A stretch of DNA of 63,703 nucleotides, the filler included, from Diploschistes diacapsis (Eukaryota), in the NCBI GenBank assembly GCA_023645945.1. It is 6 parts of 6 records of this genome, joined end to end, with 100 filler letters (N's around TTAATTAATTAA, not from the genome) between each part and the next. Parts side by side here need not be neighbours in the genome. Positions count along the whole stretch, not along the records: positions 29,582 to 36,341 come from JALAIB010001352.1; 5 more parts are not named here. One strand, given 5' to 3'. Under the pieces are notes generated by a model. It had not been told where the DNA came from. It did no database searches and saw nothing but the letters and a program-made list of their open reading frames with translations. The position numbers were made by a program, and so were the translations under genes. This document shows, in pieces, positions 11,642 through 56,984 of this stretch (its first letter is position 1; every line of letters begins with the position of its first letter).

Positions 11642-14600
11642 CTATGGAACATCGCTATCAGAAATGGCAGAATCCGTGACCTCATGTGAATCGAGAACTT
11701 GCTGTGACCCTAGCTGTGTGTCCTCATCGGTACCATTCTCCTCTTCGCTTTCGTCGTCCTCTTCATCCGTTCCTTCCTCGTCCGAGCCCGCCAATTGGGC
11801 ATCCGGCGGTAAATTTCCCCTTTCGATGTGCGTGCGTATGGACTCCCGCAGGGCGTGCATTTTTGCTTCCTGCGTAATGTTGCCATGGGCCTTATGATAC
11901 GCTTTTGTAGGCCCTAAGCCAGCATGAAGGGGTAGTGGATCGGGGCGGCCCACCGCGCGAGCATAAGGCGTAACTTGTCTGCCTGTGGAGTCGCAGAGAT
12001 AGACGGACGGATCAACGACTGGCAAAAGATTAGAAGCTCAGTCACGAATCCTTGCGTGGGTATGCAAGTATGCTTTTCAAGTCTCACCAGCTGGATGAGT
12101 CGAGGGTCCGTCACCCAAACTCGACGCCATTTGGGTAATATGACGCTCGTCGAGGTGCTCTTCGAGAAGCACTGGATCCCCAAAATCAATCTGGTTCTGT
12201 GGACAATGGATCCAGTAACAATGCAGGGCACCGTCAGCGGATTTTTGAGGCTGTGAAATGTGGACATTCTTGACGTGCTTCTTCAATGTGTCCAAATTAT
12301 GTAGCTTAACAGTACAGTCACCCCAGGAGCAAGGGAACTGAATGTATTGGTCGGTGTCAGGGTCTTCGTCTGCATATTGGTTCACAGCCTTCCAGGCTTT
12401 CTTTGGGCGCTTGAATCGAGGTTCAATATAAGAGAGTGGAGTGTCTTTCAATGAGGAAGACGGGGAAGGAACGACAATGCCAATGCCATCTACAGGAACT
12501 TCTGTATTAACTTCGTCTCTTGGCTTTGGGGGCCGCCCAGGCTTCTTCGGGTTATTGACTTCGTGTCCTGACTCTGTTGACTGCCCAGGTCTTTTTGGAG
12601 CAAAGGGTGAATTCTTAGAGCCTGGAGGCCGACCTCGCTTCCTAGGCACTGAGCCAGAATCTGGGCTTTGACTTGGGACGACCTTGGAGGGAGTAGAGTG
12701 CGAAGACTCAAGAGGGGTCTTGACTTTCGGTGGCCGTCCCCTCCTCTTCTGAACCTGCTGGATCGGATTGAGCGACTGAGAGGAAATTCGGATAGATTTG
12801 GGTGAAGAATTCATGGGTAGTTGATCCACAAGGTTTGGTGGATCCTGCAGAACATCTGCAGACGCTGCAACCATCAAATTGCGCCTAGGACTTTCTTGCA
12901 TGACAGCCTCATCTTGCGTGTCAGATGGTGAGTCTACTTCCATGGCGTCAACGTGAGCGCGATCTATGGTCTGCGAAGAACGTTGAGAGGTGGAGGTTAC
13001 CTTGTTGTTTTCTTCTTGACTTTGGTGTTGAGTAATCAGTGTGTTTGGCTGGGTTTCTATAAACGTGGCTGGAGTCTTTTCAGAGCGTGTTTGTTGGGAG
13101 GATTGAACGATTCGAGACGCGTCTCGCGCGCGAGGGCGTCTTCTGCTGACTAAGCCACCTCTAATCGGGTCTGGCTTAGGCTCCTGATCTTCATTTTGGG
13201 GCTTGTAATCGACAATAGATCTGGTTCCAAAGATAAGGCCCCTCACTCTAGGCCTACCCCGGCGACCACGACCTCTTGTCAGAATGCTGTCGAACCTCTT
13301 AGGCTGTTCATTGTGAGCAGCAGCGTCAATGCGATTCGAGTCTTTTGAGGAGACGTTCAGGGCGAGCGCCATATCATCCGGGTTTTCGCTGTCGGACACA
13401 CCTTCAAGAGACGGCAGGACTGTGCCCGGAGGCGGTCCACCAGGGTCTACAAACTCCCAACGAAAGGTGCTGAGATCGGACTTCGTCGTGACGCTTTTGA
13501 AGTTCAAGGCCAGATCCCGCATGTGGAAATTCAGAGGTCTTTCCCTAGGGTGCTCTCCCTTACTAATAAGAATGTCCCGAGCCAAAGTGCTCACATTTAT
13601 ATGCCGATTCTTCAACGCTTCGGCAGCATTGATCGGTTTCACAAGGGCTGCATTCCGCAGCTTTTCCCGCAGTGAGCCTGTCTTATCGTCCTCGAGCCTG
13701 AATCTGTCGAAATACCCAGGCTGTGGGTCTGCTGGTAGGTCTCCGGTCGATACGTATGAATGCTTGGTGGAGTTTTCAAGGTTTGGGTCAATTGCTTCAC
13801 TTTGACTTGGACCTGAACTCGTCAAAATCAGACCAGAACCAACAATGGGGGAAATTGCTTGCTCCTTGCCTGCTTGATCATTCCCTGGCCTTTGCGACTG
13901 GTGCTTCTTTGCTTGGCTCTCGTCATCAGAAAGTTGTGAAAGGTCGACAATTTCGCTGAAATTTCGCTTTCGGGCCGCTTGCTGTTTGGTTGGGGCTGGG
14001 GCCGAGCTGGAAGGAGATCCGCCAGTGATCATGCGCATCTTTTCGTAGTAAGACTTGTATTCTGGAGGTATGCTGTTTGGGCCATTGGGAGTGGGTAGCA
14101 CTGGAGAAACCACATTCGTTGGACTTCCAGAATTTCCTGCATTTCTCTTCTTTCCCTTCTGTGCTGACACTGCGGCTTGTGTTAGGTTGCTGTGCCACTT
14201 AACGGAAGTGCCAGAGCTTGGTTGGTTCTGTCGAGGTGTGGCGTTCCCGTTGGCAGAGGAAGCTGTTTCGTCTTTTCGCGCTCTTTCGTGCTCCATTTTG
14301 GGCGCATTGTCAGAAGCCCCATTTTGAGGAACCACAGAAAGTAGTGTCTTTGCAAAAGGCGCGCGACTGAAATGAAAGCCCCTAGCATTGAGCAGTCCAC
14401 AAAGTTGATCGTACGATGGGTTTTGGTTCAACATCGTGTGAATTTCCGAGGATGCAATGAATTTGCCCTTGTTGACCTCCAAGCCTTCCAAGAATTTTTT
14501 TGCAAACTCTGCTAGTAAAGGTTTCTTCTCTTCTGGCCAAATGGTGGACCGCGGGGACTGTACCGGTGGAGAAGACTGCTGACTTGATGGCGTAGGAGTT

Positions 14601-29481: not shown

Positions 29482-29581
29482 NNNNNNNNNNNNNNNNNNN
29501 NNNNNNNNNNNNNNNNNNNNNNNNNTTAATTAATTAANNNNNNNNNNNNNNNNNNNNNNNNNNNNNNNNNNNNNNNNNNNN
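29482..29581. other. Artificial contig spacer N44-TTAATTAATTAA-N44
   Basis: 100-nt linker with stops in all six frames; identical at all five gaps. Confidence 0.98.
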
Positions 29582-29992
29582 AAGTGGAGGCGGTGTGCTG
29601 TGTTCTGATGTAAGGGGGGGAGGGGAGGTAGGGGCTGGAAAGGATGTGTGATGGCAAAAGTTCAAGCGGAGTAGAATCTATTGTTTTTATTGTCATGCTG
29701 TGCTGGGGTCAGCGTCGATTGGGTGGTGGAAGAGACATTGTGAGTTTGTCTGCATGCATGCATAGTGAGTCCAAGAGATGGATATATGTATGAAAGTGCG
29801 TGTAGAACAAACAAGACGTGGAAGCAAGCTTGTATGTCCGAAGATATATACACACACCAGAACCGAGATGAAACACAAGAAACACAAGAAACACAAGAAA
29901 CACAACATCTCCTTATACGTGATAGTACAGCAACGTGACACGTGACACTACAGCGAGCGATGAGTTAAACCAATCCCAATCCAATCCCAATC

Positions 29993-32612
29993 TCACCACC
30001 CAGTAACCGCAATCCTCTGCCCAAAATTAACCGCCACCGCGACCCCCAGGAGCGCGCACAGCACCGTCGGGCCATACCGATCATAGTACCGCGCCGCCCT
30101 CCTGCTCCGGATCCACGACACGCGGACGAGATACACGACCAGCGAGTACAGCAGGCTCGCAACGGCCACGACCAGGAAAAGAAGCGACGCGGACAGCGAG
30201 ACGTCGTCGCCGAAGTTAAGCAGGACGCCGGCGATGCCGCTGAAAAGGATGGAGATCTGCAGCCAATCGAGGAAGGTGCGCTCGACGGCGAAGTAGACTT
30301 TTGGCTCGACGCGCACGGGCACGTGGATGCCTGAGTGTGGGTGAGCGGTGGCTACGAAGGGAAGGGAAAGGTTGGTGGTAGGTAAGGTACTTACGTTTGC
30401 CTCTTGGCGCTTTGAAGCGCTTTGGCTCGACTTGTGCGGGCAGAGCACTCATTGCTCCTGCTGTGTCGGGCAGAGGCATGGGTTTTGGCGTGATAAGGTT
30501 GAATGCTTTGGCTATGTAGGTACCAATTTGAGCGATGTGGTGCTTTAGCAGTTCTTGGCCGCATGTCAAGTCGGGCGCTCTTTTTGCTTCTTCTAGCCTA
30601 TCCTCGTTGTCATCATCGGAGTCGTAGAGAGGATGGTCGCCGTGATAGATTATGGGTAGGTCCGCCATTCGCTCTTCTTCGTCAAGTTCATTGGGATCTT
30701 GATCGTCTAATCCTCGCTCCCGCATGTGATTCGCAGCTTCCATTCGTTCTTGTGCTTCTTGTAACAGAGCTGCACCGTCATCGTGACCTGCTGCACGCTC
30801 AAAGCTACGGGGTCTGTCATCCACAACCTCATCCTCATCATCCGACAACTCATCTTCGGAGTCCCGGAAGTCTTCACTTGTGCTCTTGTTTGTGGGATGA
30901 GCAGGTCGCTCTATACCGAAACGGCGCGCAGCTGGCTTGCGAATATCGATGTCCATTTGCGGCATCCAAAATGGGAGCAGATTGATTCTCGTAGGAAAGA
31001 GAATAGCTGTGCCGTGTATGAACTTGCTGAATTTGGGAACCGCTTCAACGAGATGGCTTCCGACAAGCTCCCGCACCCATGCAGGTGGTTCCTGGCCCGC
31101 TTGAGTCTGCAACTTGACCTCCAGGACAGCATATGGGAATCGCTCAACGTCTTCTGCTGGCAGCTGAGAGAAGGGATAATCAATGCCAATATCCGTCCGC
31201 CGCCAATTGGCTCCAGCTCTCTTTCTGCCGTCGAGGTTGTCTTCTCGCACCATGGTGAGCTCTGTGTCCAGAGATATCCGAACACGAGCGTCTCCCGGTA
31301 GCTGAAAGGCTGTACGATTGTAGAAAGATCGAGTTACCGGAACGAGTTCCCTTGTGATAACGCGATACTGAATTTCCCTTGCTAGTTGTTCGAGATCATC
31401 AATCTCCTTGTCGCTCTTTTTCCCGTCTTTTCGAGCCTTCTCAAAGATGCTTTCAACCGTCATCTTTCCAGCCAAGAATGCATTAACATTTTTTTCTTTC
31501 AACGAAAAGCGAGCCTTTACCGACTTCTCGCCGGTCCAGTCCTCCCTATGTGTTTTCCTTTCAACAAAGATTGTCCCGTTCTCCATTCCGCCATACCATC
31601 GTAGCCGTATGGCTTCGGCGCCCTCGGTCTTCTTTAATCGACCGGTATAGAGCTCCCATGTATCGGTATTGTCGTAGTAGATCGAAGAGATAGCAAAGTC
31701 TTTGATTTCGAATTCTTTATTGGGATTAAACACTAATACAGGCAGATTCTAGAAGCAGTCAGCGCTACATCGCGGAAGCAACCGTGATACTTGCTTTAAG
31801 AATTATAAGTTTGAGCTCAGTTATATTGTCTGGGTGTACCCAGTACTTTGTAGTCTGGCGAACAAAGTTCTGCTGGCCCCCTCCAGCTGCGCTGTCTCCG
31901 GCGATGGGGTGTCCCTTTGTACGAACAAGGTCGTACAGCCTAGATAGCTTGACGATGTCCGAGTCATAGTTGTCCTGAAAAAACGGCTTCGCTTTTAGTC
32001 TGGTCGCAAAAACGGGTTTCAGGTGCCATGACGTTTGTTTCTGTTACGGTCAGGTTGAAGGTGTTGCGGTTGACGTACGTGGTACCCACATCATGCTTTT
32101 TTATAATCTTTTGAAAGCCGGTGTAGTTCAATTGGGTGAACTTTGCAAGATCGTGAACATCGGCAATAATGTCGCTAAGATCCTCCTCCAAAAGCAAGAA
32201 ATCCGCTTCCGCTGGCTCGTCCGCATATGGTACACCATCCTCTCCAGCATGGTTGGCTTGGTCCAGTCGGGACACGACATCGTTGACCTCTCCTTCGCTA
32301 CTCTTGATCCGTCGTACTATCTCCGCAGACTTGACTCGCTGGAAGGCGAAGACTTTGTCCAGCTCTGCCTCGAGCTGAGAGACGAAAGACTTCTCATCTT
32401 CCTCTGTCCACGATCGTCGTTTGGGGCTTGAGTCCTGCGAAGCAGGTTGTAGTTCGTATGGTTTTTTCAGAGCGGCTTTCAAGTCATCGTAACATATATA
32501 GTAGTAGTACCAATCTCGGATCAGGGACTGACGAAGTTGCTGGCCGACTATAGTAGCAGCAGAATTAGCAATGGCGAGAATGTCTAGCGGGGGAGAAAAC
32601 CTTACACTTCAT
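29993..32612 (-). CDS. VTC4: Vacuolar transporter chaperone 4 (polyphosphate polymerase; SPX-VTC-DUF202), multi-exon
   Basis: 7-nt exon 1 gives MKFGQQLR... (SPX); [82 protein letters not shown]. Confidence 0.95.
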
Positions 32613-33226
32613 GCTCGAAGCTTGTCTGCCAATTTCTAGGCGGGACCCAGAGCATCGTCAGTCAGTACGACAGGTCGATTTTTCGTCCATAAGTGGTCAA
32701 CGACAACAATGCTTGGGATGAAATTGACCCATGGGCGGGGGAGCTCTTAGAAGCTTTAAGCTCTGGCCAAGACATTCTTGCTATTGCGCCTACCCACATC
32801 ATGCTGTATCTTGTCTCTTGGAAGAGAACGTAATTGTATTAGTACTGTCTCACGGTGCTCTCACCTACTTACCTGCCCTTAGTACTATCCGATCTGCCCG
32901 GATCTGCATCTAGCAAGTCATCAAATGTTGCCACGATATTCGATATTCGGGTGTGGCGCGTCCGTGGCATGTGTGTGGCTGGTGCTTCCTTCATGATCTC
33001 AATGATAGGTGAGGAGCAACTTCGGGAACGTACATGTATCTCCTGAAAATTATATACCCATGTTACTATTGTCCGCCCCGTTGTTTACTCGGTGCAAATT
33101 CATATATACTCCGCAGGTTATGCTGAATGATGTGAGAACCAGTCATCGTGACACTATTATCTCAACTGCCGGTGTCACCAAAATCCGGAGTAACCTCAGA
33201 TAATCGTGTTCTAATCCTAACCAAAT

Positions 33227-35854
33227 ATGTCACGCCATAGGTTCGTCAAGGCTCTGGACGTTGATGAGGAGCTGGACGACTTCGAAGGAGAGGAGGATGA
33301 GGACGAAGAGTATAATTACACTGCTGATCCGAAAATGCAAGAAAGCCTCGCACAAGCTAGGGACGTTCTTGATAGCCACTTCACGGACCGCGAAATACAG
33401 GACTCTTTATGGTATACCTATTACGACGTGGAAAAAACAGTGAACTTCCTCCTCAGTATATTGTACAGCTCCTACATCTCAAGCAAGCTGACTAAGTCGT
33501 AGATAAAAAGACCAAAGCTACCGCCAAATCATCTGCTCCAACGTCACAGACAGCACAAAAACAAAAAGGTTAGTCGTGGCTCATTTTCTCCCTCTTTTTC
33601 ACCAAATTATACAAGACTGGGCTCTACTCGGAGATCCCAGACCATGAGAAGGCCTCCAATATCAGGAAACAGCTCGCGGCTGATACCGTCTTTCAGCGCC
33701 CTTGAGAGTTGGTGGATGCGGCAGTTCGAGGACCTATCTAGGGCTGGATCTGACGAAGGGATTCTTTGCGGACTGTCCTTGGCTGAACGTGCCTCACACT
33801 CGGCAAGCTCTGATATCAGTGGAGCCGATGTATCCTTGCAAAGGCCTCCTGGGAGGCTCCTCCAAAGACGCGCCCCGAACATCAAAGCTCGCAGCGCTTG
33901 CTGCGGCTAGGAAAAAGAAAGCTAGCGAAAGCTCGTCCTCGGACCCAAAGTCGCCAAGCAGCCCGGCTGCTTTTTTGGACAAGTTGAGCAAGCCAAAGAG
34001 CCGCGGAGTCGAAGGATCCATCAGCTCATCGCAGAACCCTAGCCTGGAGCGTCTTGCTAGACCGTCGCAGCCTCGATTTGGCAAGTATCCAAGGCGACAG
34101 GAGACGAAACCAGAAGAGGTACTCAAAACCGAAGTACGACCGCCAGACCTGTCTCCAACTGCTGCCGTGCAAGAAGAGAACTCGATCGCGCTTGCCGCTC
34201 CCTCCACCTTCGCCTCGACCATGCTTGGAAGACCTCAAAAACACAATACTACCTCCTATACTGTCGCTTATGATCCGTTTCAGATGAACTGTAACTTAAG
34301 CGGGGCTAACTTTAATGCCTTTGCAGGACCTAGTCCCGACGATGTAGTTGCGAACGCACAGAACGCTCCAAAAGCGATGAAGTCAAAGAGTCAGCCCAAA
34401 GGTCAAGGGTTGAAGTCTAACGGGATAGACCATGTCACAAATGACATAAGTCAAGCAACCATATCGGATGCAGGGCGGCTTCCAACCAAGAGTAAGAAGC
34501 TGAATGTACTGGAAGAGTACAACAAGTCGAAGAAAAAGAATGCCGCAAATTTCGTGGTCATTGGTGAGTGGACCAGACATCCTGGCCATGTCCACGAAAC
34601 CAGTTAACGAAGCGCCAAGGACACGTTGACGCCGGAAAGTCTACGTTGATGGGGCGTCTACTATGGGATCTGAAGGTGGTCGACCAACGGACAGTCGAAA
34701 AGTACCGAAGAGAAGCCGAGAAGATTGGGAAGTCGTCGTTTGCTTTGGCATGGGTTCTCGATCAAGACACCGACGAAAGGGAACACGGAGTCACGATTGA
34801 CATAGCCGTGAACAAGTTCGAAACCGACAAAACCGCCTTCACCATCCTCGACGCGCCGGGCCACAAAGACTTCGTCCCGAACATGATTGCAGGAGCTTCC
34901 CAGGCTGACTTTGCGATTCTTGTGGTTGACGCTAGCACGGGCAGCTTCGAGTCTGGGCTAAGGGGCCAGACGAAAGAACACGCCCTTCTCGTTCGGAGCA
35001 TGGGCGTGCGCCGCTTAATCGTCGCCGTCAACAAGCTCGACGCAGTATCCTGGTCAAAGGAGCGCTTCGAAGAAATATCCCAACAAATCTCCGCCTTCCT
35101 AACCGCCACCGGATTCCAGCCCGACAACATCTCCTTCGTCCCCTGCTCCGGCCTGAACGGCGACAACGTAGCCACCAAATCCCCCGCCTGTACCTGGTAC
35201 AGCGGCCCCACGCTCCTCGCCCTCCTCGAATCCTCCGAACCAACCACCCAAAAGCGCGCCCTCGCCGGCCCGCTTCGCCTACCAATCTCCCAAGTCCTCA
35301 ATGCTGGAGTCCAGCATCCCCTTTCCGTCGTCGGCCGCATCACATCGGGCAGCTTACAGGTCGGCGACAAGATCACGGTCGTCCCCTCCGGGCAGACGGG
35401 CTACGTCAAGGCGCTAGCCATCGACGACGAGCCGACGGAGTGGGCTGTCGCGGGTCAGAACGTGACGCTGCACCTCTCGTCCGACGTGGACGCGGCACAC
35501 GTTGGGGGTGGGAACGTGGTGTGTCCCGCCGACGCGCCGGTGCAGTTAAGAAGCAGGTTCACGCTCAAGATACTGGCATTTGAGCACGTGATGCCTATGT
35601 TCTGCAGCGTCGTCGTGGGGCGCCTGGATGCACCGGCGAGGGTGACGAAGCTGCTGGCCGTGCTGGATAAGAGTACGGGGAAGGTGGCGGAGGGGAAGGG
35701 CGGGAAGAGGCCGAGGATAGTGAAGCCGGGCGAGGTGGCTAGAGTGGAGGTCACGGCGGAGGTGGATGGGGGGTTGCCGGTTGAGGAAGGAGCGAGGGTT
35801 GTGCTGAGGGCGGAGGGGGAGACGGTAGCTACAGGGCTGATGGAGGGGTTCTAG
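33227..35854 (+). CDS. HBS1: Hbs1/Ski7 translational GTPase (eRF3/EF1A family), with predicted alternative 3' splicing
   Basis: Exons 33227-33455, 33503-33568, (33697 or 34327)-34563 and 34620-35854. N-terminal IQDSLWYTYYDVEKTVNFLL; G-domain GHVDAGKST, REHGVTID, DAPGHKDFVPNMI and NKLD. Confidence 0.93.
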
Positions 35855-35956
35855 CCAAATATCTGGATGGAGTTTGCACGAGGTAAATGTGTGATGATGT
35901 GATACGATGAACGTCACCAGCAGAGAATAGATACGCTCGAATTTTCGGAATTAGTT

Positions 35957-36341
35957 TCAAAAATTAAACTCCTCCGAGATAACTTGCTGCCCCTGAAGCC
36001 AACCATGCACACTCTTCTTCAGCTGCGGGCCAGCACATACATACCACCTAGCCACGCTCGCCGCCGACGCCGCCTCGAAATCCCCACTCTCCATCCTCCT
36101 CCTATGAATCTCCAAGCCCATGGCCTCCAAGTCATCCAAAGCACTCTGGGCACCAGGATCCACGGCCCCCGAAACAAACACGCTCGTCCACGGCAATCCC
36201 ACCTCCTTCCACTCCCCGACCAGCCTCCTCACCATCGCCACGTCCTGCCCGCCAACCGCCCACCACACCCTCACCCTCCGCCCGTCCAGCGCCGCCAACT
36301 GTCCCAGAAGCGGCGTAATGCCCACGCCCCCGGCCACATAT
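35957..36341 (-). CDS. Ferredoxin-NADP reductase-like oxidoreductase, NAD-binding C-terminal part (5' lost in gap)
   Basis: YVAGGVGITPLL and WYVCAGP motifs, ending EEFNF*. Confidence 0.75.
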
Positions 36342-36441
36342 NNNNNNNNNNNNNNNNNNNNNNNNNNNNNNNNNNNNNNNNNNNNTTAATTAATTAANNN
36401 NNNNNNNNNNNNNNNNNNNNNNNNNNNNNNNNNNNNNNNNN
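36342..36441. other. Artificial contig spacer
   Basis: N44-TTAATTAATTAA-N44. Confidence 0.98.
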
Positions 36442-43199: not shown

Positions 43200-43299
43200 N
43201 NNNNNNNNNNNNNNNNNNNNNNNNNNNNNNNNNNNNNNNNNNNTTAATTAATTAANNNNNNNNNNNNNNNNNNNNNNNNNNNNNNNNNNNNNNNNNNNN
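43200..43299. other. Artificial contig spacer
   Basis: N44-TTAATTAATTAA-N44. Confidence 0.98.
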
Positions 43300-50053: not shown

Positions 50054-50153
50054 NNNNNNNNNNNNNNNNNNNNNNNNNNNNNNNNNNNNNNNNNNNNTTA
50101 ATTAATTAANNNNNNNNNNNNNNNNNNNNNNNNNNNNNNNNNNNNNNNNNNNN
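50054..50153. other. Artificial contig spacer
   Basis: N44-TTAATTAATTAA-N44. Confidence 0.98.
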
Positions 50154-56884: not shown

Positions 56885-56984
56885 NNNNNNNNNNNNNNNN
56901 NNNNNNNNNNNNNNNNNNNNNNNNNNNNTTAATTAATTAANNNNNNNNNNNNNNNNNNNNNNNNNNNNNNNNNNNNNNNNNNNN
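56885..56984. other. Artificial contig spacer
   Basis: N44-TTAATTAATTAA-N44. Confidence 0.98.

Follow-up and report, generated by a model that had tools for sequence, protein, structure and literature searches.

A single SKI7/HBS1 gene with alternative 3' splice sites was described by Marshall et al. in 2013 for Lachancea kluyveri, Aspergillus nidulans and Saitoella complicata, the three species covered by the reported RT-PCR evidence (PMC3597508), and the event has thus been published for the Ascomycota, including a member of the Pezizomycotina. According to that report, A. nidulans uses both 3' sites of the second SKI7/HBS1 intron, the distal one lying just upstream of motif S3, and the L. 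kluyveri forms complement different mutants, the long one ski7 and the short one hbs1 (PMC3597508). Marshall et al. further state that such alternative sites are predictable in many other fungi (PMC3597508), and the alternative splicing of SKI7/HBS1 is restated by Hurtig et al. 2020, who also cite Marshall et al. 2018 (PMC7491326). Saccharomyces cerevisiae and Schizosaccharomyces pombe are reported to have the same two functions, but in separate, duplicated and unspliced SKI7 and HBS1 genes (PMC3597508), and human HBS1L isoform 3 and the plant HBS1/SKI7 genes are described as using cassette or alternative terminal exons (PMC5389692, PMC6143672).

Here we analyze an orthologous locus of the fungus Diploschistes diacapsis, contained in a 63.7-kb stretch of DNA (the window). 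Its sequence, taken with the described systems, makes it very likely that the gene produces two proteins, a long one resembling Ski7 and a short one resembling Hbs1, through the two in-frame 3' splice sites of intron 2 (probability roughly 0.85). The layout resembles that reported for A. nidulans: the gene belongs to the same family, the alternative 3' sites lie in the second intron with the distal one at the S3/PSPDD motif, the Ski7 motifs fall on the long form and the predicted short form consists of HBS1_N and GTPase (PMC3597508). The D. diacapsis gene has three introns, compared to four reported for A. nidulans, and its junctions are predicted from sequence, whereas those of A. nidulans are known from RT-PCR (PMC3597508). 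As in L. kluyveri, the proximal 3' site would give the Ski7-like and the distal site the Hbs1-like product, with the motifs of the long form located between the two sites; in L. kluyveri, however, isoform function was reported from complementation and both proteins from western blot, whereas function in D. diacapsis is assigned by homology (PMC3597508). Unlike S. cerevisiae and S. pombe, D. diacapsis carries the motifs of both proteins in one gene, and a search of the 63.7-kb window for a second HBS1/SKI7 copy matched only the gene itself. The human Ski7 is described as devoid of a GTPase, in contrast to the D. diacapsis arrangement, in which alternative 3' splice sites would leave the GTPase in both predicted forms (PMC5389692, PMC6143672).

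The event is therefore already known, as an orthologous instance of a published and anciently conserved alternative splicing, and involves no new biology. The locus would nevertheless provide a clean example of one fungal gene for two mRNA-surveillance factors, a Ski7-like exosome/Ski-complex adaptor and Hbs1, the partner of Dom34. Its practical value lies in annotation: automatic gene callers report one product only, usually the long one, so fungal proteomes of this kind seem to lack either Hbs1 or Ski7. In addition, the comparison of 62 orthologous contexts presented below quantifies the conservation of splice signals embedded in coding sequence and shows their loss in some lineages.

Gene structure and the two acceptors of intron 2

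Homology identifies the locus as the HBS1/SKI7 orthologue of a filamentous ascomycete, with the exon–intron structure given in Table 1. The start chosen for exon 4 is the only one that provides a single terminal stop and restores GHVDAGKST; this motif and DAPGH are both present in the translation, and the G motifs of the GTPase are thus intact. Exon 4 has Pfam matches to GTP_EFTU (E 1.5e-48), GTP_EFTU_D2 and GTP-eEF1A_C. A match of exon 3 to AllH (Pfam, E 0.0054) falls under the curated cut-off and was taken as chance. The predicted products comprise 798 aa (long) and 588 aa (short), each with one terminal stop, and HBS1_N, encoded 5' of the alternative intron, is common to both.

Table 1. Predicted features of the D. 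diacapsis HBS1/SKI7 gene, in window coordinates.
Feature	Position	Strand	Description
Exon 1	33227..33455	+	ATG at 33227; HBS1 N-terminal domain (Pfam HBS1_N, E 5.4e-12); in both predicted isoforms
Intron 1	33456..33502	+	47 nt; GTATAT...CTGAC...TAG; frame stays open once removed
Exon 2	33503..33568	+	66 nt; Lys-rich linker; final G is base 1 of the split codon (phase 1)
Intron 2, proximal version	33569..33696	+	128 nt; donor GTTAGT; CTGAT 33680-33684; acceptor TTTCAG ends 33696
Intron 2, distal version	33569..34326	+	758 nt; donor GTTAGT; acceptor TTTGCAG ends 34326
Optional segment	33697..34326	+	630 nt (210 codons); predicted exon in long (Ski7-like) form, intron in short form
Distal branch site and acceptor	34305..34326	+	GCTAAC 34305-34310, pyrimidine tract, TTTGCAG; within codons for G-A-N-F-N-A-F-A-G
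Exon 3, common part	34327..34563	+	opens with (G)PSPDDVV (S3/Patch 4-like C-terminal half); closes with NFVVIG
Intron 3	34564..34619	+	56 nt; GTGAGT...CCAAG
Exon 4	34620..35854	+	translational GTPase domains; stop TAG 35852-35854

The first-pass annotation had proposed that a single phase-1 donor can be joined to either of two acceptors lying in the same frame, and each element of this proposal was recovered exactly. The donor (G^GTTAGT, the caret marking the junction) begins at 33569, directly after the last exon base, a G at 33568. The proximal acceptor, TCTTTCAG, has its branch A 13 nt before the final G, and the distal acceptor has its branch A 17 nt before the final G. The two are separated by 630 nt, or 210 codons, with no intervening stop. 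The peptides that had been read from this region (FFADCPWLNVP, SKLAALAAARKKK, APSTFAST and GANFNAFA^GPSPDDVV) are all present in the translation as given, and the distal branch point and acceptor do lie inside the GANFNAFA codons, directly before GPSPDDVV, which positions the acceptor at the S3/PSPDD motif. Exon 3 holds 26 phase-1 (in-frame) AG sites, so an in-frame AG is in itself unremarkable; among the 26, only the CAG ending at 34326 has both a CTAAC at a distance of 17 nt upstream and a tract that is 73% pyrimidine.

We propose that the single phase-1 donor of intron 2 would be contested by two pairs of branch site and acceptor. Use of the proximal acceptor (33696) would keep the 210-codon segment, resulting in the long Ski7-like form, whereas use of the distal one (34326) would drop it, producing a 588-aa Hbs1-like protein made of HBS1_N, linker and GTPase that would retain only the PSPDD half of the motif. 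By analogy with the described systems, we infer that both acceptors are used in D. diacapsis, and the division of Ski7 and Hbs1 roles between the two products would presumably follow that of L. kluyveri. The Ski7/Hbs1 alternative-splicing reading put forward in the first-pass annotation is thereby supported, the locus being an HBS1/SKI7 orthologue whose two-acceptor second intron matches the layout reported in PMC3597508.

Both sites might also be used to regulate a single activity quantitatively, the short form acting, for example, as a low-activity or decoy product. The PFDF...SPDD motif of human HBS1LV3 is reported to have a minor role only in exosome binding (PMC5389692), which is in line with this possibility, but the L. 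kluyveri isoforms are reported to complement different yeast mutants (PMC3597508), and the predicted D. diacapsis short form retains all that an Hbs1 needs, namely HBS1_N and a GTPase with GHVDAGKST and DAPGH. We consider regulation of one activity quite unlikely.

Retention of intron 2 would introduce a stop immediately after the donor (33569-33575; ...KQKG*), leaving an HBS1_N fragment of about 99 aa. In the window, N(44)-TTAATTAATTAA-N(44) blocks recur every ~6.86 kb (29482-29581, 36342-36441, 43200-43299, 50054-50153 and 56885-56984), and the gene lies on the ~6.8-kb piece between the first two (29582-36341). The window looks like a set of similar-sized contigs joined with an artificial all-frame stop linker, and gene order across the joins is consequently untrustworthy.

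The optional segment and deposited gene models

A protein search with exon 3 retrieved 210 proteins at E<=1e-3. The best match was a Xylographa soralifera protein (E 3e-44, 45% identity), and the closest named relatives among the matches listed are lichen-forming Lecanoromycetes, with ~45% identity in exon 3. Among the best 120 of the 210 proteins, those bearing HBS1_N measure 742-947 aa and therefore include the optional segment. The conserved blocks, surveyed as motifs in 121 sequences and by alignment in 10, are FFxDxPWLNxP, LLGGSS (EPLYPRGGLLGGSS), SKLAALAAARKKK, APSxFA (APSxFAxT) and FAGPSPDDVV. The first-pass annotation had made its reading depend on the 630-nt segment being open and conserved in related species, and the segment is both. 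Homology thus indicates that the optional segment is coding sequence, conserved across the Pezizomycotina.

These results bear directly on a reading in which the distal acceptor alone is used, which would place the 630-nt segment within a long intron and make the protein a plain Hbs1. The distal branch site, CTAAC, is indeed nearer to consensus than the proximal CTGAT, as such a reading would favor. The segment, however, is a 210-codon open frame in which five protein-level blocks are conserved across Pezizomycotina classes, with matches down to E 3e-44, and a 758-nt intron is not expected to remain open and conserved. Exclusive use of the distal acceptor is accordingly very improbable.

The conserved motifs specific to Ski7 are encoded between the two 3' splice sites, and SKLAALAAARKKK would presumably correspond to motif S1. 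The gene's AAPSTFASTML fits the SKI7-like consensus A+PShFAahL given in PMC6143672, and its NFNAFAGPSPDDVV agrees with the Patch 4-like motif in the form given there. In yeast Ski7, Patch 4 is reported to contact Csl4 via Phe207, Pro212, Asp213 and Asp214 (PMC4942675). These contact residues are shared with the PSPDD region of the D. diacapsis gene, in which an invariant Phe precedes the second Pro of PSPDD by 5 residues, a spacing identical to that of Phe207 and Pro212 (PMC4942675). Because this Phe lies two codons before the distal junction, the predicted short form lacks it, in agreement with the earlier suggestion that the short isoform loses the F..F part of the exosome-binding motif.

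As had been anticipated, gene callers give one model per locus: most deposited models are of the long form, and one, from Stereocaulon virgatum, is of the short form. This 584-aa model (P0124) joins the linker straight to the motif (...KAKAI-GPSPDDVV...), and its homology to an 86%-identical relative carrying the optional segment starts exactly at the Gly of GPSPDD; for at least one lecanoromycete, callers thus settled on the distal junction, and for most others on the proximal one. The short model and the long models of many species lend indirect support to the occurrence of both predicted junctions in mRNA.

Distal splice signals among orthologous loci

A scan of metagenome contigs yielded 80 orthologous loci that were kept for comparison. 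One PSPDD is present in 79 of the 80, as well as in the window, the exception being L075, and dereplication of these 79 loci together with the window gene resulted in 62 distinct contexts. Of the 62, 49 retain the AG at the corresponding codon, and 47 of these 49 present a CTRA within 40 nt upstream of it, in 45 cases at a distance of 11, 14 or 17 nt. Conservation of both acceptors in orthologues had been suggested as a check on the reading, and for the distal one, acceptor and branch site are thus kept together in 47/62 contexts. The stricter CTRAY is found upstream in 32/49 contexts with the AG, compared to 1/13 without it. At 13,861 in-frame control positions of the same frames, the frequencies are 9.2% for AG, 1.8% for AG with CTRA (246 positions) and 0.49% for AG with CTRAY.

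For the Ala just ahead of the junction, GCA is the codon in 40/53 cases, versus 28% elsewhere; the associated binomial p of 1.3e-12 treats loci as independent though they are related and overstates significance, cluster counts being fairer. Clustering of the 80 sequences at 60% protein identity gives 34 clusters (26 with signals, 7 without and 1 mixed), and at 50% identity it gives 25 (18, 6 and 1, respectively). Furthermore, CTRA falls in the codon register NCT RAN in 46/47 contexts and is preserved across eight different encoded residue pairs (TD, TE, TN, TK, AD, AE, AN and SN), and the tract from branch site to AG is 71% pyrimidine against a background of 49%. Judged from these counts, the distal splice signals are constrained at the nucleotide level, far beyond control positions.

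This constraint is evidence against the possibility that the proximal acceptor alone is used, yielding a single 798-aa protein, and that the distal CTAAC...CAG is a by-product of the amino-acid constraints on the Patch 4-like motif. Such a reading would account for the prevalence of the long form among deposited orthologous models, for the conservation of the Phe and Gly flanking the junction as residues, and for the 13/62 contexts that do without the AG. It does not sit well, however, with a synonymous bias toward the splice signal in the Ala codon, nor with the maintenance of CTRA across shifting residue pairs; in addition, the distal junction is used in the S. virgatum model, and the orthologous distal site is reported to be used in A. 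nidulans by RT-PCR (PMC3597508). We therefore regard exclusive use of the proximal acceptor as unlikely and favor the use of both sites to produce Ski7-like and Hbs1-like proteins.

The donor is in phase 1 in all 16 contexts, out of 62, in which the HBS1_N frame leads directly into a canonical pair of donor and acceptor. The other 46 comprise 29 without such a direct pair, in which one more intron is probably present, as it is in the window, 10 without the N-terminal motif on the contig and 7 without the PWL motif. The automated search for donor and proximal acceptor was heuristic and failed at many loci; a looser version modelled 36/62 contexts, several of them implausibly, and was not used as evidence.

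Loci lacking the distal site

The AG is missing from 13/62 contexts and the AG and CTRA pair from 15/62; the event is therefore not universal, and some lineages have lost or replaced it. The distal signals are present in 37/45 contexts with an intron between HBS1_N and exon 3, compared to 1/5 of those in which the two lie in one open frame. The pattern among orthologues suggests that the alternative 3' site was lost more than once.

The loci in which the distal AG and/or CTRA is missing comprise one 12-locus cluster (L007, L014, L016, L029, L037, L047-L050, L061, L062 and L065) and six smaller ones (L036, L054/L057, L059, L060, L063/L064 and L074). In orthologues without the distal site, GCA GGA is replaced by, for example, GCT GGA. 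Four of the five contexts without an intron between HBS1_N and exon 3 (L036, L047, L061 and L063) are also without distal signals.

At loci that keep the distal site, splice signals and protein motif would occupy the same bases, and the residues upstream of PSPDD (T/A, D/N/E/K, a short spacer and F-A-G) may be held partly by the spelling of CTRA, a pyrimidine tract and CAG^G. It is possible, and we put it forward only tentatively, that the splice signals shape the protein in this manner and that the distal site disappeared independently in several lineages, which would need another way to make Hbs1.

In most of the loci L002-L080, a conserved AAAG^GT(T/G)CG-like phase-1 donor follows PSPDD by ~13 codons, at ...AQ.KG, and the frame closes beyond it, 16-28 codons past PSPDD. 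In the window gene (34327-34563), the frame continues for 79 codons past PSPDD. These observations suggest a further intron after PSPDD in most orthologous loci that is absent from the window gene. The post-PSPDD intron, or the cassette exon that it would define, was considered as a hallmark of loci without the AG and rejected, since the frame ends 16-28 codons on in 41/47 contexts with signals and in 15/15 without. Where this intron exists, in-frame skipping of the exon that lies between the two phase-1 donors would also be conceivable.
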